Shown here: positions 2,331-19,530 of the stretch, one piece after another | Position numbering within the stretch: the first letter of the stretch is position 1 | Layout of the letters: each line of letters starts with the position of its first letter | Source of the DNA: Escherichia phage ESCO5 | Sequence record: NC_047776.2 | Length of the DNA stretch: 64,000 bases | Reading direction: 5' to 3' (one strand) | Translations under genes and position numbers: made by a program | Notes under the pieces: model-generated | What the model saw: only the letters and a program-made list of their open reading frames with translations | Database searches by the model: none | What the model was told of the DNA's origin: nothing

Positions 2331-2960
2331 ATGGCAGTGAGTGTTGACCATGTAACAACTTGGGCCAGTATCAATGAAGATGTTAAAAACCTTCTGATTG
2401 AAGATTTTAAATCTTCTCCTAACATTGTCAAGCTCCTCTACATCGTATCCAGTGAAAAGCAAAAGATAGATCAGGCAATGATCTATCTTGCTAAACACCG
2501 CTTGATCTCCACAGCCACAGGCAAATACCTAGATATCTTAGGAGAAGAAATGGGGATCGAACGTAATGGCTCTGATGATGAAGAGTATAGAACAATATTA
2601 AAAATCAGGGCTTACCGCGTAGCCTCATCGGGGACTCGTGGTGACATAATTGATATCTTCGCCCGTTTCACAGGAACAGAGCGTGAAACGCTTAATACTT
2701 ACGTAGGTTTGAATAAAACCTTTGATGTGTTTTTCTACAACCTGTGTCTTCAATCTGATCAAGCTTTAGAGCAGTTGCTAAGTGTTTTCCCTATTATTAG
2801 TAGCTACCGTCTTGGAGCAAAAGCAGGATCAGCTTTTGGTTTTAGTTCTTATTATGCTGCCAAACCGCCTCATGGTATTGGTGGTTTAGGTTCCCTGTAC
2901 ATGGAATCTACTGGGGATGAAACAGGACGCATGTGTACGCTTCTCAAGCAAATAGATTAA
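2331..2960 (+). CDS. baseplate/tail protein (gpI-like, tentative)
   Basis: 209-aa ORF directly after the gpJ-like gene; context-based call. Confidence 0.4.
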   Translation: MAVSVDHVTTWASINEDVKNLLIEDFKSSPNIVKLLYIVSSEKQKIDQAMIYLAKHRLISTATGKYLDILGEEMGIERNGSDDEEYRTILKIRAYRVASSGTRGDIIDIFARFTGTERETLNTYVGLNKTFDVFFYNLCLQSDQALEQLLSVFPIISSYRLGAKAGSAFGFSSYYAAKPPHGIGGLGSLYMESTGDETGRMCTLLKQID

Positions 2961-2969
2961 GGAGTTTAA

Positions 2970-4031
2970 ATGGCGAAGCCAATATATTATCCTGACTGGG
3001 CTACACAAACTGTAACGCTCCCAGGAACTTTAAACACAAACAAAATTAGACCTAAAGAAACCATCCGCACAATTGGTATGGATTATGGTCAAATCATGAC
3101 TTGCGAAGAAATGAACTGGATTCTTAATAATATCGGTTTATGGATTCGCTATTTGGTGGATGACTTTCTTCCAACTTTACCTGATACTTACTTGCCTTTA
3201 ATTGGAACTAAGATTACAATGGCAGGTGATGCTACTGGTGAGGCTACTTGGAATGGTAATAAAGAAGTTACTTTATCTATCCAAGTTCAAGATAATAGTC
3301 ATAATCACTTGTCGGCAAACATTACAGATGCCACTAGTTCAACAGTAACACCAAACGTGTTGGTAAAACGTGATGCAGGTGGTGCTATTTACGGTGGTGA
3401 TATTTATGTTAATGGCACTTCCACAACAGATCCTGCAACACTGTTCTTCAAAAACTTTGCAGGACAAACGAATGGTGAGATTTCTGCCGAGTATCAAAGC
3501 GGAGGTCAGCTTTACATCTATCGTAGAAATCCTAGCACAGGTAGTGTATCGGCAGGTGTTCGTTTATATGATGCAGGTTATGTTCTAATAGATAATCCAA
3601 GATCAAACAGTGGACAAGACACTTCTAACGGAAATGCTTTAGTTCGTTTAGATTATCTGAACTCTCGTTTGACTTCCCTTCAGAATACATTGCAGACGAA
3701 TATTAACACTGTTCAAAACAACTTGAATAATGTTAACAACAACCTCTCTTCTCGTATAAACAATGTAGAAAGTAATCATCAAAGTCAGATTACAAATAAC
3801 TACAACTATGCTAACGGAACCTTTGTAAGAGATATTCGTTATACTAGCCAAGGTGTGTATTATCCACCAGGGAACGAGGTTTCTTGGACTTATATCTGTT
3901 CTTCTGGTTATGTTCTTTCTGGTATTATCGTACAGGAAACAGGACGTAGCTCTGCGGATAACATCGGTGGGGTTTACTTCAAACGCCTCCAGCGCAACGT
4001 TAACGGAAACTGGTACGATATTGGAGGCTAA
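2970..4031 (+). CDS. tail fibre protein
   Basis: 353 aa with N/Q-rich heptad-like segment (NTVQNNLNNVNNNLSSRINNVESN) and Gly/Ser/Thr-rich C-terminal part; sits in the fibre gene block. Confidence 0.5.
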   Translation: MAKPIYYPDWATQTVTLPGTLNTNKIRPKETIRTIGMDYGQIMTCEEMNWILNNIGLWIRYLVDDFLPTLPDTYLPLIGTKITMAGDATGEATWNGNKEVTLSIQVQDNSHNHLSANITDATSSTVTPNVLVKRDAGGAIYGGDIYVNGTSTTDPATLFFKNFAGQTNGEISAEYQSGGQLYIYRRNPSTGSVSAGVRLYDAGYVLIDNPRSNSGQDTSNGNALVRLDYLNSRLTSLQNTLQTNINTVQNNLNNVNNNLSSRINNVESNHQSQITNNYNYANGTFVRDIRYTSQGVYYPPGNEVSWTYICSSGYVLSGIIVQETGRSSADNIGGVYFKRLQRNVNGNWYDIGG

Positions 4032-4577
4032 ATGATATTTACAAACTTTAAAAAATATATTCCTGAAGACCCTGAACTAAAAGAATTGGTAGAAGCAGAG
4101 AACATTCTTTTTCTTCGTTGCGATCAAGGTTACGATTGGTATGATTTACGTAGCACAGAATTCAATAACGATAAAATGAAAGTCGTTTTTGATGATCAAA
4201 ATCGTATTGTGTTTTGGAATACTGATCCTACACTACTTTGCCCTGAAGATCTTTCTATAGCACAAGTAGACTTTAACATAGATACTTTTGAGGATATTAG
4301 GAACAAGGTTCTGGATTTAGAAACCTTAACTCTTAAGAATAAAGAGTATTCCCGTGAAGAGTTGATGACACAAGCTAGTGCAAAAATTCGCTCTTTACAA
4401 GAAACAGCGGTAGCACTTATAACACCTTTACAGTATGCTAAAGATTTAGAAATGGCTACTGAAGACGAATTAGCTTATCTTAAAAATCTTCAAGTTTATG
4501 TAGTTAAACTAAATCGTGTTCCGCTTCAAAAAGACTATCCTTACGCTATAGATTGGCCTACATTACCGACAGAATAA
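4032..4577 (+). CDS. hypothetical protein, possible tail fibre assembly factor
   Basis: 181-aa ORF immediately after the fibre gene with overlapping stop/start (TAAATG); context only. Confidence 0.35.
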   Translation: MIFTNFKKYIPEDPELKELVEAENILFLRCDQGYDWYDLRSTEFNNDKMKVVFDDQNRIVFWNTDPTLLCPEDLSIAQVDFNIDTFEDIRNKVLDLETLTLKNKEYSREELMTQASAKIRSLQETAVALITPLQYAKDLEMATEDELAYLKNLQVYVVKLNRVPLQKDYPYAIDWPTLPTE

Positions 4578-4586
4578 GGGATCACT

Positions 4587-4922
4587 ATGGAATTTCAAGA
4601 AGCATGGGGACTTGCAAAGGATGCAATAATCCCTTTAATCGGAGTCATCTGGTTCTTTTTCAAACAAAAAATGGATAAATTCGGCTCTGATCTTGAGGAA
4701 ATGGAGGAGAAAAGTCGAGAGCTAGAGAAGAAGTTGGTCTTTGTTGAATCAACTTATGCAACTAAAGCCGAACTTACCCAGATGCTAAATCAAATTAACT
4801 CTACATTAATGGCAAATAATAACACTCTTGAGCAAAAAATTGAAAAGATTATGGACCTCAAGAATGCGACTATCCAAATGATGCTAGATGACATAGTTAA
4901 ACGTACACAGAATAAGGGGTAA
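4587..4922 (+). CDS. hypothetical membrane-anchored coiled-coil protein
   Basis: 111 aa; N-terminal hydrophobic helix (IIPLIGVIWFFF) followed by a predicted coiled coil. Confidence 0.45.
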   Translation: MEFQEAWGLAKDAIIPLIGVIWFFFKQKMDKFGSDLEEMEEKSRELEKKLVFVESTYATKAELTQMLNQINSTLMANNNTLEQKIEKIMDLKNATIQMMLDDIVKRTQNKG

Positions 4923-15403: not shown

Positions 15404-18400
15404 TCAATGACAGGATGCCCAGGAATTACCCACGTCATATCCGGCAGTAAGCTGAACGTTAAGATTGTAAAATTCTCCAGCCTTAGTAACAGCTAAAGCA
15501 GCAAGTTCACCTGCCCGACTATAAGCTGTAAACCATCCACCTTTGGGAGATTCATGAATGTTAGCCCAAATTTGCCCTGTCTCTTTTTCCTTATTATGCT
15601 TCCATTCTTCAACTTTAGCAAGGCATTCTTTATCAATTTTCTTTTGTTCTTCAGGATCGTCTACTTTCTTCCAACCTAATGATTCAGGTGAAAACCATTT
15701 GAATTCTACAAGGTTACGAGAAACTTCAAGCTGGGCTTCATCGTGGTATGCAATCATTTGTTGCACGAAGTCTTTATTCTTCCAGTCATCTTTAAAGAAG
15801 TCAACACTTAGTCCTTCTTCTTCGATCATATCGTCATAAATAACCATTGCACGTTTAGCACAGATAACCCCACCACTTTGGAACAGAGAGTTAAGAATCG
15901 CGTGAGCAGAACGAGTAGGAACCTTACGACCGTCAATACCCAAAACATACTGTTTACCAGTCTTAACCCAGAAATCGTTTAAACGTTCTTTAAGACGCGC
16001 CAGTGGGAATGCAGCTTCCCAGAAAGCATCGAACACCAGTTGCCCTGTAAACTTATCGCTACCAATTGTTTTAGCAACCTTGTCGGCTTGTGCACCATAG
16101 GTAATACCATACTTAACAGATTTAGCAGGACTACGTTCAAATTTACGTCCAATAGTTTCAGTGATACGTTTTGCCATCATGGTATGAACATCGTTAGGCT
16201 TCTCTAACAAGAGAGCGTTACAGTATTCATGAGGCTCCGGTTCGTAGCGCCAACAGTTTCCTGTGATGGTAATGCAGTCTTTCTGACGCATGACCCACGT
16301 ACCAAGTTCTGTTTGTGGACACCAAACATCCTCTACACCCCACTCTTCAATAGTCAAACTTTGAACAGGAATGTGAGAGCGGTTAGCCAATGTTACCACT
16401 TTTACTTTCTGCTCTTTTGTATTGAAAGCTACAGAGATATTGCCTCCATGCACCAGGTACGAGGCAGTTAAAGCTGCTTCAAAAAGTTCACCTGGGTTCT
16501 GCGCCCAACGCCAAACAGGTTTTTGTTTATGTTCATGCCAGTAACCATCTGCAATCAAGAAACCTTCCAAGAAAGCTACACGCTCGGCATGAGACATATT
16601 AACTACACGCTCTACCCACGGAACATCCCATTTACCTTGTTGAACAGAAGTTAAACTATTTACCTGATCTTGTTCCATGTTAAATGGAGCATTACAAATA
16701 ATATTATCTCCTGTGCAAAGCTCGGCAGTTGTTCTGACTTTAGGCACATAAGTATTCCCTTTACTACGGGTATTAACATACCAACGGTGATCTGCTGTTG
16801 CACGGTAAGTGTGTGATTTCCCTTTAATCTCAAACGTCTTACTATTTTTATAGAAGACCTTACCTTTTACTTTAGTCCATTCTTTCAGACCTGTTTCAGC
16901 ATTGTACCCTAAAATCTCATCCCCTTCCTTCAGGTCGTGATATCCTACCCAACCTTTACGAGTCAAAGCTTGAGCATCCATCGGCACACAGTAATGCGAC
17001 TCAATCTTTGCTTCCAAAGAGTCGAAGTCATAACCGATCTGGAAATATTTAGGAACTTCTACACCAAACAAGTTACGCATCTCCCATCCAAACAAAGATG
17101 TGACACGAGGGATATTGGCTACAGACCTATGCTTCATACGAGAGGTTGCAGCATCACATGTAGCGGCTGGGGTAGGAATACGCCCATCTGCCCTTACTGC
17201 GGCTAAGAAACCTTTATCGTATTCTTGATCTTCTTCATCTTCTTCCCAATCAGCACCGCCACCTAAAATAGAGTTCCTACGATGCTTATACGTTAAGTAT
17301 TCTACAATCTGAGTAGCATAAGGAAATTTCTCACCCAAAGCTTGCAGGTTAGGACAGATTTCTTTTTCCTGACCTTTGGTAAAACATGGGTTAGTCAATA
17401 CTTTAAGACCGCGACCTTTACCTTTTGCTATACGCTCTTGAATCTTCCTTTCCAAGGTTTCCGGTGCGCACTCCAGATGATCACAACGGTCCTGACAAAA
17501 ATTAGAAGATAAAGTTTGCTCAACGTAAGCTCGAATACCTTTCTGAAGTTCTTCCTCACTCTTTTTAATCTTGGTGCCAGATTTAAGAGTCAAATCTTTA
17601 TCTTTATATTCCGATGGTACCCAACCTAATCCTACAAGCCAGTTTTTAATATGGGTTGTATCGTTCAATGTCGCAGGGATGTTAGGATCACACAGAGGCT
17701 CATCTGCTGCAACTGGCAGTTTCCACTCTTTCCCCAACATAACTAACCACCAATCGCCATCCCTCTCTTCCAAATGACCATCATGTTTTTTAGCAAAATT
17801 GATCATATGGTTAGTTGGTTCGAGGTTCTTTTTAATTTGCAATTTAGGCGGAATAAAAGCTTTAAGATAACCTTTTGTTGCTGGTTTAGGTGGCAAAATA
17901 GGCTCAACGAGTAAACGAAGACGCTCCATTTCTGCATCCAAAAAAGCAAGGTTCTCTTCTGCTTGCTTCATATTAAAAGCAAACCCACGGTGTTCCTGGC
18001 GCGTGATAATGTCTGCTACACGTTGTTCAAGTTCAAATGGACCTTCCCATTTATCATAATCACCCCATTCTTCCATAAGGTAGTTATATACGCTCGTATT
18101 GGCTTTGTTGTCATAGATACAGTAATAAAGCATATCCGCAGCAAAAGTCTTAAATCGATCTTCTTCTGGAATCTCTTTACGGAAATCTATTTTTACATCA
18201 CCACCTGCTTTTCGAGAAAGTGCTGCCAAGCTATGTCCTGATTTGCCCTCAATCTTTCGATCTGGGTTTAACACTTTACTCAAAATCAAGGAGTCAATAA
18301 GTTTTACCTTATTTTTGCCCCACGTATTATATTTAACACTGTAATCTAATCCATAAAACAGTTTTGTAGCCAACCAGTCGTAGTTGATACCGTTGTGAGC

Positions 18401-18736
18401 CACAGCCATTTCAACCAGATATTCAGGCTTGTCTTTAAAATAACCTTCATGATTAATAAAGTCTGGGAAATCTTTTAGTTGAAAATGCGTGTAATCTTGC
18501 GCCACATACTCTTTAAGAACATATGTATATTTACCATCTGACTCTTCATAAGGACGCCCATCAAAGATGTATTTAGGGCCATCGTGGAAAGCTACTATTT
18601 CTCCTGTTTCATGGTTCTCTAAGACAATACAGTGCATTTGAAATGTGTCTTTGAGACGATAAGGACTAGCTAAATAATCAATAGTGTCATTATTCAACAA
18701 TCCGTTTGCTTCAATATCCCATGTAAACTTACTCAC
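15404..18736 (-). CDS. DNA polymerase, family A, with 3'-5' exonuclease domain and an intein-like insertion
   Basis: 1110 aa; GTG start after AGGAGG. Exo I motif DIEANG; motif A DFDSLEAKIESHY; motif B AKSVKYGITYGAQ; motif C YHDEAQLEV; about 245 extra residues between motifs A and B. Confidence 0.85.
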   Translation of the reverse strand: MSKFTWDIEANGLLNNDTIDYLASPYRLKDTFQMHCIVLENHETGEIVAFHDGPKYIFDGRPYEESDGKYTYVLKEYVAQDYTHFQLKDFPDFINHEGYFKDKPEYLVEMAVAHNGINYDWLATKLFYGLDYSVKYNTWGKNKVKLIDSLILSKVLNPDRKIEGKSGHSLAALSRKAGGDVKIDFRKEIPEEDRFKTFAADMLYYCIYDNKANTSVYNYLMEEWGDYDKWEGPFELEQRVADIITRQEHRGFAFNMKQAEENLAFLDAEMERLRLLVEPILPPKPATKGYLKAFIPPKLQIKKNLEPTNHMINFAKKHDGHLEERDGDWWLVMLGKEWKLPVAADEPLCDPNIPATLNDTTHIKNWLVGLGWVPSEYKDKDLTLKSGTKIKKSEEELQKGIRAYVEQTLSSNFCQDRCDHLECAPETLERKIQERIAKGKGRGLKVLTNPCFTKGQEKEICPNLQALGEKFPYATQIVEYLTYKHRRNSILGGGADWEEDEEDQEYDKGFLAAVRADGRIPTPAATCDAATSRMKHRSVANIPRVTSLFGWEMRNLFGVEVPKYFQIGYDFDSLEAKIESHYCVPMDAQALTRKGWVGYHDLKEGDEILGYNAETGLKEWTKVKGKVFYKNSKTFEIKGKSHTYRATADHRWYVNTRSKGNTYVPKVRTTAELCTGDNIICNAPFNMEQDQVNSLTSVQQGKWDVPWVERVVNMSHAERVAFLEGFLIADGYWHEHKQKPVWRWAQNPGELFEAALTASYLVHGGNISVAFNTKEQKVKVVTLANRSHIPVQSLTIEEWGVEDVWCPQTELGTWVMRQKDCITITGNCWRYEPEPHEYCNALLLEKPNDVHTMMAKRITETIGRKFERSPAKSVKYGITYGAQADKVAKTIGSDKFTGQLVFDAFWEAAFPLARLKERLNDFWVKTGKQYVLGIDGRKVPTRSAHAILNSLFQSGGVICAKRAMVIYDDMIEEEGLSVDFFKDDWKNKDFVQQMIAYHDEAQLEVSRNLVEFKWFSPESLGWKKVDDPEEQKKIDKECLAKVEEWKHNKEKETGQIWANIHESPKGGWFTAYSRAGELAALAVTKAGEFYNLNVQLTAGYDVGNSWASCH
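16256..16990 (-). mobile_element. putative intein (Hint domain with LAGLIDADG-like remnant) inside the DNA polymerase
   Basis: Insertion starts with Cys right after motif A (SHY|CVPMD) and ends ...ITGN|CWRY (Asn then +1 Cys); contains a TxxH block (RATADH) and a LAGLIDADG-like motif (FLEGFLIADGYW). Flanks rejoin as a normal family A motif A-to-B spacing. Confidence 0.45.
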
Positions 18737-19530
18737 TATTCCTCCTTTCTAATGTTCTCCAGAACCCACTGAAGTTCTTTTAAACTTAAACTTCTTACTC
18801 CCGCAGTTTTACTAGCTTCAGCTTTAAGTAACGGGTAAGCCTCAATGATACGCGTTTTAAGATCAGAAGTCAAGGCTTTTAAAAAATAGGTAGATGCTTC
18901 AGATAAAGAATCTTCTTCTGATAACACTTTACCTGCACTTGCTCCCGCTCTCCTAACGGCTATATCGTAGTCTTTACTGTTACCTAATACGAATAGTCGA
19001 TTCTCTCCTAAAACAACGGGAGAACGCTTCTCGTTGCGTTTAATCCATATCTGGAATACACAAGGAACATCCCAAGGTTCTCCATGAAGAATAAAAGATC
19101 CTTTTGGACATTCTTCTTCGTAAAGAAGATGCATGTGGGGATTTAGTTTGTGTGCAAAAAAGATTTTTTGAAATGTGCGAGGCAAGATAAAACAAATACC
19201 ACCTTCGTTATCCAACATTTCAGCACAATGGTTAAAGAACTTAATGGCAAGACTAGCATTTTTTCCAAACGGAGGATTACCGACAAAAGCAGTTACACTA
19301 CCAACAGACTCAACAGATTGAGCTAAAAAATCTGCCTCAATACAATCTTCAAACTTAGGGTCAATATCAAAAGAAGTTATGTTTTTAAAACAAGAAGAGA
19401 AAGCTCCTTCTCCCGCAGATGGTTCTACGTAGTTAGCTTCCTCTCCAAAAATTTCTTTGATCTTATCACATAAGAACCCCGCATAAGCGGGGTTAGTGTA
19501 ATATTGATCAAGTGTGTTCAACTTGCTCAA
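18736..19530 (-). CDS. DNA N6-adenine methyltransferase
   Basis: 264 aa; TTG start after AAGGAGG. AdoMet motif EPSAGEGAF and catalytic NPPF motif. Confidence 0.7.
   Translation of the reverse strand: MSKLNTLDQYYTNPAYAGFLCDKIKEIFGEEANYVEPSAGEGAFSSCFKNITSFDIDPKFEDCIEADFLAQSVESVGSVTAFVGNPPFGKNASLAIKFFNHCAEMLDNEGGICFILPRTFQKIFFAHKLNPHMHLLYEEECPKGSFILHGEPWDVPCVFQIWIKRNEKRSPVVLGENRLFVLGNSKDYDIAVRRAGASAGKVLSEEDSLSEASTYFLKALTSDLKTRIIEAYPLLKAEASKTAGVRSLSLKELQWVLENIRKEE

Follow-up and report, generated by a model that had tools for sequence, protein, structure and literature searches.

A probable intein with a single LAGLIDADG domain interrupts the family A DNA polymerase of Escherichia phage ESCO5

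The family A DNA polymerase of Escherichia phage ESCO5 carries 245 residues between polymerase motifs A and B that near-identical phages lack. Do these residues form a mobile intein that leaves the enzyme by protein splicing, or are they a permanent part of the polymerase? We studied this locus in a stretch of 64,000 nucleotides from the ESCO5 sequence record NC_047776.2, which is referred to as a whole as the window. A preliminary description of the window, made from its letters alone, had read the insert as an intein with a LAGLIDADG remnant and had considered its splicing competence uncertain. Comparisons with insert-free relatives, with predicted and solved structures and with a large family of related elements lead us to infer that positions 16256-16990 very probably encode a mobile intein that is competent for splicing.

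The polymerase, which has a 3'-5' exonuclease, is encoded by an open reading frame (ORF) at 15404..18736, on the minus strand like all features of the window described here, and is translated from a GTG start codon into a precursor of 1110 residues. This precursor is identical, residue for residue, to the 'DNA polymerase I' of ESCO5, which places the window in Phapecoctavirus, and the DNA of the gene is 97-99% identical to many Phapecoctavirus genomes. The N-extein (residues 1-582; 16991..18736) ends with motif A, DFDSLEAKIESHY (16991-17029), which abuts the insert directly. The insert itself, CVPMDAQ…CITITGN, occupies precursor residues 583-827 (16256..16990), and the limits first proposed for it proved exact to the base. 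It starts with Cys1 right after motif A and ends with Asn245, and the next residue is Cys+1 (16253..16255), which opens the C-extein and is the presumed acceptor nucleophile (CWRYEP…). Motif B, AKSVKYGITYGAQ (16088-16126), lies 44 residues past the C-terminal junction, within the C-extein (residues 828-1110 plus the stop codon; 15404..16255). The active site of the polymerase is split by the insert immediately after motif A.

Removal of the insert in silico restored an uninterrupted polymerase. The precursor scored 43.8 bits against Pfam DNA_pol_A (cut-off 34.3), and the host polymerase matched PHROG 17 with an E-value of 3.9e-106. After splicing in silico the DNA_pol_A score was 51 bits and the match formed a single contiguous stretch over the junction, which it does not in the precursor. 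The spliced segment was also collinear with T7 DNA polymerase (T7 gp5; E 1.5e-17), in agreement with the resemblance noted from the sequence alone. The alignment was gapless at the junction, where LAHF/MARFDN of T7 gp5 corresponds to ESHY/CWRYEP of the spliced product (a slash marks the splice junction here and below).

Phages that lack the insert precisely demonstrate that it is not an integral domain of the enzyme. The phAPEC8 polymerase has 865 residues, of which 864 match the in-silico spliced product of the window, and the phAPEC8 DNA reads …CACTAC/TGTTGG…, with exactly 735 base pairs (bp) absent at Y582/C (protein …IESHY/CWRYEP…). The 735 bp are likewise absent at Y582/C in ESCO13, ev052, Ro121lw, SKA64 and DIJ07P1, and about half of the closest relatives are precisely without them. 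Among the 121 phage records that match the gene, 32 cover its full length, and many at 97-98% identity cover 78% of it in two pieces. A tblastn search with the insert returned 33 records at 90.6-100% identity, from Phapecoctavirus, Justusliebigvirus (phi92, SD2) and Klebsiella phage KP13-16. The same intein lies at the same site in the Stephanstirmvirinae polymerases of phi92 (gp159), SD2, vB_EcoM_REC, anhysbys, ZCKP1 and KP13-16, among which its amino acid sequence is 90.6-100% identical over all 245 residues, with no substantive difference. The intein DNA had zero matches in 5,426 complete E. coli genomes, and the intein is therefore not prophage-borne there. A seemingly different insert of the same length in vB_EcoM_01 (PP129558) was rejected as an assembly gap, as the polymerase gene of that record contains a run of 514 Ns and then frameshifted sequence.

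The predicted structure of the insert is that of a Hint domain with a second domain between its lobes. In an AlphaFold (AF2) model, the predicted local distance difference test (pLDDT) score was ~90 in residues 1-100 and 211-245, which form the N-terminal (16691..16990) and C-terminal (16256..16360) Hint lobes. The top 50 Foldseek matches of the model in the PDB were all inteins or Hint domains. Homing-endonuclease-containing VMA inteins headed the ranking, and the matches included TliVMA (E 3.7e-8), PI-SceI and the class 3 inteins MchDnaB-1, AceL NrdHF and Msm DnaB. At the level of sequence, a profile of the family detected the AceL NrdHF intein (6zgq; E 1.7e-5), NrdJ-1 (5.4e-5) and DnaX (1.5e-4) among PDB sequences. 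Searched against 1.84 billion proteins, the same profile found 6927 representatives at E<=1e-3, and 478 of these had E-values below 1e-30.

The Hint fold is also found in domains that cleave themselves without splicing, and bacterial intein-like (BIL) and Hedgehog domains appeared among the Foldseek matches (ranks 15 and 26-29). BIL domains, however, have no +1 nucleophile (PMC7664689). In the window this position is Cys+1, and in the 167 intein copies taken from the best 150 profile matches, from which all residue counts below derive, it is Ser (94), Thr (46) or Cys (27) in every case. Furthermore, a polymerase cleaved between motifs A and B would not function. We consider a BIL or other autoprocessing domain that cleaves rather than splices to be hardly credible at this locus.

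Relatives of the intein are found in unrelated proteins as well as in other polymerases. A first protein search revealed relatives, 26-34% identical, in unrelated proteins and one mini-version in motif B of another family A polymerase. In phage genomes, relatives occupy the TerL, portal and tape-measure genes of Gordonia phages and the Pseudomonas KIL polymerases, and an SU10-type portal protein and a metallophosphoesterase are further exteins of the family. Junction contexts include FDVYP/…/SAYANG, TFIYA/…/TLYGAG in motif B of a T7-type polymerase, and RxxH/…/SPNM, and other members occupy the same motif A site as the window intein (IEAHY/…/TYKYDN). The commonest extein, in which the junction FDVYP/…/SAYANG lies close to the N-terminus, is an unannotated metagenomic protein of 350-1600 residues; one such protein was scanned against Pfam in its spliced form and had no match.

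Not every search points to an intein, and several results weigh against this identification. The Pfam model Intein_splicing (PF14890) scored only 16.3 bits on the insert (E 0.009), below its cut-off of 35.8, NCBIfam and PHROGs scans of the insert returned nothing, and a profile of blocks F and G matched no solved intein among the PDB sequences. Because the Intein_splicing score and the LAGLIDADG_3 score described below are both sub-threshold, the two domains of the insert would be missed if the curated Pfam thresholds were used alone. The question of intein identity is settled instead by homology and structure. The precise absence in near-identical phages, the Hint fold and the relatives in unrelated exteins bear out the intein reading of the preliminary description.

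The residues expected to act in splicing are highly conserved in the family. Cys1 (A:1; 16988-16990) was present in 167 of 167 copies. The core of block B, Thr65-Ala-Asp-His68-Arg69-Trp70 (16781..16798), contains the TxxH block that had been recognized earlier (TADH, T65-H68) and provides positions B:7, B:10, B:11 and B:12, whose roles we assign after PMC7891396. Thr65 (B:7) and His68 (B:10) were each found in 167/167 copies, Arg or Lys at position 69 (B:11) in 158/167 and Trp70 (B:12) in 161/167. The C-terminal lobe comprises block F, DVWCPQTELGTWVMRQ, and block G, CITITGN. Cys224 (16319..16321), located 21 residues before the terminal Asn, was Cys in all 162 aligned copies; we assigned it to F:4 by its spacing, its conservation and its position in a predicted strand, not by residue-level superposition. 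The intein ends with Thr243-Gly244-Asn245 (G:5, G:6, G:7; 16256..16264). Thr243 and Gly244 were each conserved in 161 of the 162 aligned copies, and Asn245, the expected cyclizing residue, was conserved in all 162.

The usual class 1 helpers (Asp F:4, the F-block His and His G:6) are replaced in the window intein by Cys224, Thr231 and Gly244. That the penultimate residue is Gly rather than His had been noted correctly, but the doubt about splicing attached to it does not hold, because Gly at this position is near-invariant in the family and present in inteins that splice experimentally. The AceL NrdHF intein, with S65, H68, R69, M70, C124, T144, G145 and N146, lacks both assisting histidines; its splicing is near-complete within minutes, and the G145H mutant is inactive (PMC7891396). 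Similarly, mycobacteriophage class 1 inteins often have Gly, Lys or Ser as the penultimate residue, and a Gly-to-His substitution at this position of the Bethlehem RDF intein resulted in precursor accumulation (PMC5050341). Judged by the family alignment, the penultimate Gly is a hallmark of the family and not a sign of decay.

These observations bear directly on the alternative that the insert is a dead intein or a permanent non-splicing domain, with the 1110-residue protein as the mature enzyme. The penultimate and F-block histidines are absent and the Pfam scores fall below threshold, both of which would agree with such an enzyme. Its active site, however, would be split directly after motif A, and near-identical phages work without the insert. 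Furthermore, purifying selection acts on the splicing residues, which are invariant; the same element is found in unrelated proteins, and the closest characterized relative, which shares the His-less constellation, needs only minutes to splice. ESCO5, which carries the intein, is lytic; its latent period is 15 min and its burst size 135 (PMC5374246). With the polymerase active site split by the insert and ESCO5 nevertheless growing fast, splicing would need to be efficient and rapid. A non-splicing insert is therefore very improbable, and a splicing-competent intein remains our conclusion.

How would such an intein be removed? In the mechanism that we propose, the 1110-residue precursor would be translated and the two Hint lobes (intein residues 1-100 and 211-245) would fold together to excise the 245-residue intein. 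A thioester, activated by Thr65 and His68, would form at the N-terminal junction, and the acyl group would pass to Cys+1. Arg69 would substitute for the penultimate His in helping Asn245 to cyclize, as R69 does in AceL NrdHF, where it contacts the C-terminal scissile carbonyl (PMC7891396). A spontaneous S-to-N shift would be the final step. Tyr582 would in this way be joined to Cys828, giving the same 865-residue polymerase that phAPEC8 encodes directly. Our best guess, which we hold loosely, is that Cys1 initiates the reaction with the assistance of Cys224, His68 and Thr243. We favor Cys1 on the ground that residue 1 is not conserved in canonical class 3 inteins; the alternatives are initiation by Cys224 or a relay from Cys1 to Cys224 to Cys+1.

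Class 3 inteins carry a WCT triplet made up of Trp at B:12, Cys at F:4 and Thr at G:5, and the window intein has it as Trp70, Cys224 and Thr243, with F:4 assigned by spacing. The same 21-residue spacing from Cys to Asn is found in MP-Be DnaB (C320/N341), Msm DnaB-1 (C118/N139) and Mle DnaB (C124/N145) (PMC5222942, PMC2807308). By definition, position 1 of a class 3 intein has no nucleophile (PMC2807308, PMC7891396), and because Cys1 is invariant the window intein departs from class 3 on its defining feature. The invariant Thr at B:7 is a class 1 trait, and class 3 inteins do not conserve B:7. On the other hand, the fit to class 1 is a formal one, because Asp F:4 and both assisting histidines are absent. 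Cys1 and the triad residues Trp70, Cys224 and Thr243 are all essentially invariant in the family.

A class 3 route would give Cys224 the attack on the N-terminal junction, followed by a branched intermediate at block F and transfer to Cys+1, with Cys1 being dispensable or serving another role, for example in redox control. The family-wide invariance of the full WCT triad and the shared spacing are consistent with this route, as is the fact that the top PDB hit by sequence has been proven to be class 3, likewise ends in Thr-Gly-Asn and has Arg at B:11. In addition, Tori et al. (2010) found Ser1 or Cys1 in 3 of 37 WCT inteins and named these as class 3 candidates, leaving the mechanism open. The conservation of Cys1 in every copy argues in the opposite direction, as class 3 inteins are variable at position 1, and so does the invariant class 1 residue at B:7; the route also depends on an assignment of Cys224 to F:4 that was made without superposition. 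On balance, we regard a class 3 route as unlikely and initiation by Cys1 as the preferred reading.

Several characterized inteins resemble the window intein in part. The AceL NrdHF intein (PDB 6ZGQ, PMC7891396), a naturally split class 3 intein that the family profile matches best among PDB sequences, shares with it the numbering of His68 and Arg69, Cys F:4, the Thr-Gly-Asn end and the lack of an F-block or penultimate His. In contrast, AceL NrdHF is split, starts with Ala1, has Met at B:12, Ser at B:7 and Ser+1, lacks an endonuclease domain and interrupts a ribonucleotide reductase. The window intein is contiguous and has Cys1, Trp70, Thr65, Cys+1 and a LAGLIDADG domain. Canonical class 3 inteins (MP-Be DnaB, Msm DnaB-1, MchDnaB1) resemble it in the WCT triad, the 21-residue spacing, the association with phages and the Hint fold. 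They differ in having no nucleophile at position 1, in mostly keeping the penultimate His, in not conserving B:7 and in residing mostly in helicase or terminase P-loops. The Bethlehem gp51 RDF intein (PMC5050341) is likewise phage-borne and Cys1-initiated, with a functional penultimate Gly whose change to His is harmful. Mycobacteriophage class 1 inteins differ in their host proteins and in their two-motif endonuclease, and the WCT triad has not been reported for them.

Is the element mobile? Between the window and SD2, which belongs to a different genus, the intein DNA is 91.7% identical with a synonymous divergence (dS) of 0.48, versus 72-80% identity and dS from 1.5 to saturated for the exteins. 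By this measure the element is younger than its host gene, which points to lateral transfer. In the same comparison, the ratio of nonsynonymous to synonymous divergence (dN/dS) was 0.02 for the Hint lobes, 0.037 for the LAGLIDADG domain and 0.06 for the polymerase; these figures come from the SD2 comparison alone, as dS against KP13-16 was saturated. By these ratios, purifying selection acts on the whole intein, including its mid-domain.

The flanking DNA tells less about how the intein moves. Comparison of the regions at ~16180-16255 and 16991-17010 of the window in 8 intein-plus and 6 intein-minus genes revealed two synonymous haplotypes. Each of them was seen both in genes with the intein and in genes lacking it, and not one difference was fixed. 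The haplotypes differ by ~11 silent sites within +9 to +75 nucleotides downstream of the junction, a local excess of divergence given that the genomes as a whole differ by only ~2.5%. This pattern is compatible with repeated gain and loss or with intense recombination, and it bears no direct mark of homing. Silent substitutions beside both junctions, seen between the window and phAPEC8, had at first suggested co-conversion or an allele immune to the endonuclease, and this explanation was abandoned in view of the independence of the haplotypes from the intein. The phAPEC8-like haplotype shares states with phi92-like SD2, and the window-like haplotype is derived.

The domain that could drive mobility lies between the Hint lobes. 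Residues ~120-205 (16376..16633) form a single LAGLIDADG-fold domain, and a model of residues 96-214 built with 34 homologs (pLDDT 89) showed the alpha-beta-beta-alpha-beta-beta topology. The LAGLIDADG-like motif of the preliminary description was found in the segment FLEGFLIADGYW at residues 140-151, with FLEGFLIADG at 16544..16573. The presumed catalytic residue, Asp148 (16547-16549), was Asp or Glu in 152 of 157 copies, and Gly149 was conserved in 155 of 157. Additionally, Gln164 (16499..16501) is 99% conserved and aligns with the active-site Gln42 of I-DmoI. The catalytic residues are conserved although family members are only ~20-45% identical to the window mid-domain. Foldseek and sequence-profile matches to LAGLIDADG were individually weak (E 0.03-0.2) and pointed in the same direction, and LAGLIDADG_3 matched 13 of the 34 family mid-domains at E<=1 (best 1.8e-4). 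The one-domain architecture was found in 127 of 167 copies, which represent 56 clusters at 50% Hint identity and many insertion sites, although this share is inflated among the top 150 matches because the query profile itself contained the domain. What had been called a remnant is instead one complete, conserved LAGLIDADG-fold domain under purifying selection.

A single LAGLIDADG domain amounts to half an active site, and active enzymes pair two, either in tandem or as a homodimer. Because of this, we presume that the window domain would act as a dimer. We know of no dimeric arrangement among intein-encoded endonucleases. In the proposed scheme, the domain would provide or contribute to homing activity and would thereby keep the element polymorphic and moving between lineages. 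That the domain supplies or contributes such activity is the most likely reading of its conserved residues, and endonuclease activity is plausible, with the chances for and against it roughly equal.

A number of results weigh against homing by the intein itself. Pfam LAGLIDADG_3 scored 12.9-14.5 bits on the mid-domain (E 0.13), below its cut-off of 22.5, and the chain holds one LAGLIDADG domain only. The palindromic symmetry of the intein-less target was not above that of shuffled controls (P 0.45-0.85). The flank haplotypes do not follow the presence of the intein. No co-conversion tract or immunity allele could be shown, and the polymorphism could be explained, with no active endonuclease, by ordinary recombination of co-infecting phages.

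It is conceivable, then, that the intein splices and its LAGLIDADG domain is inert, a structural or DNA-binding relic in an element that persists vertically and spreads through general recombination only. Several findings argue otherwise. An inert domain would hardly be expected to keep Asp/Glu in 152/157 copies, Gly149 and Gln164 among members so divergent, nor to show a dN/dS of 0.04. The single-domain form also occurs at many unrelated sites and in 56 Hint clusters, which indicates repeated invasion, and the intein is younger than the extein between genera. We judge an inert domain to be a serious possibility that falls somewhat below an even chance, and a domain with a part in homing remains the preferred reading.

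The LAGLIDADG intein endonucleases PI-SceI, TliVMA, PI-PfuI and PI-PkoII are 360-540 residues long and contain two LAGLIDADG domains, in many cases accompanied by additional DNA-recognition regions, whereas the 245 residues of the window intein hold a single one. I-CreI, I-MsoI, I-CeuI and I-CvuI are free-standing, intron-encoded homodimers of ~160-210 residues with longer beta-hairpins, and their targets are pseudo-palindromic, whereas no palindromy above chance was detected at the site of this intein. Two features can be proposed for this family, each of which would be new if confirmed: two-cysteine splicing, in which Cys1 and the class 3 triad are both obligatory, and a dimeric intein endonuclease, in which two inteins would pair their single LAGLIDADG domains into an active homing enzyme. 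That at least one of these holds true is a tentative proposal that we doubt more than we believe. If two-cysteine splicing were true, the family would either use a relay mechanism or be the long-sought living link from class 1 to class 3, and it would bear on the dispute over whether class 3 arose by divergence from class 1 or by convergence.

A second, related intein is found in motif B of the same gene in nepoznato (MN850571; nucleotides 2501-3472), as well as in ukendt, nieznany, phiWec187 and AV126. This intein has 324 residues, is 33% identical to that of the window and contains two LAGLIDADG motifs (…AKSVKYG/CVPVDN…ITLTGN/CTYGAQ). The window intein aligns with its second LAGLIDADG motif only and has ~80 residues fewer. 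In the phages that carry the motif B intein, the motif A intein is missing and the site that it would occupy has the sequence SHY/TWRY, with Thr in place of Cys. Four genomes labelled as Campylobacter jejuni phages, 'Campylobacter phage' A150, A145, C3 and A110a (MG065639, MG065645, MG065656, MG065689), combine a phAPEC8-type polymerase with a nepoznato-type intein. Their identity values equal those of the coliphages; the host label looks doubtful, and contamination or mislabelling is possible.

To what extent was the intein known? The SD2 record (PQ821640) already labels the same intein as part of an 'intein-containing DNA polymerase precursor'. The other names that we encountered, including that of ESCO5, are generic, with nearly all records reading 'DNA polymerase I' or 'hypothetical protein'. 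Our literature search found no paper describing this intein, and no statement on inteins for this phage group was found in the BASEL supplement. A 2024 paper described inteins as unreported in E. coli or coliphages. The family to which the intein belongs is very large, with thousands of metagenomic representatives, and is essentially undescribed. Its noteworthy traits are the combination of class 1 and class 3 signatures, an active site without both assisting histidines, and a single LAGLIDADG domain.

The annotation gap has practical weight, as the polymerase is plainly labelled in dozens of coliphage genomes that are candidates for therapy. The intein is common in Phapecoctavirus and Justusliebigvirus, and sister phages carry the related one in motif B. 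Near-isogenic pairs that grow on E. coli K-12-type hosts (ESCO5 or REC versus ESCO13 or phAPEC8) offer a system for studying the homing, cost and persistence of an intein. With 245 residues, no assisting His, and Cys1 together with the class 3 triad, the intein is a natural test case for the evolution of class 3 splicing. If it were as fast as AceL NrdHF, it could also become a protein-engineering tool.

In the Justusliebigvirus SD2 (PQ821640), the polymerase with the intein has an HNH endonuclease gene immediately downstream (nucleotides 4115-4711), and the window has no counterpart downstream of its polymerase. The annotated N-terminus of the polymerase is shorter in Ro121c4YLVW (3234 nucleotides) and Ro121lw (2562 nucleotides) than in sister genomes, which probably reflects a different call of the start codon. 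In the window, the GTG start codon at 18736 overlaps by one nucleotide the stop codon of an upstream ORF (18736-19530). Relatives list this ORF as a putative DNA N6-adenine methyltransferase, and one record calls it 'DarB-like anti-restriction'.

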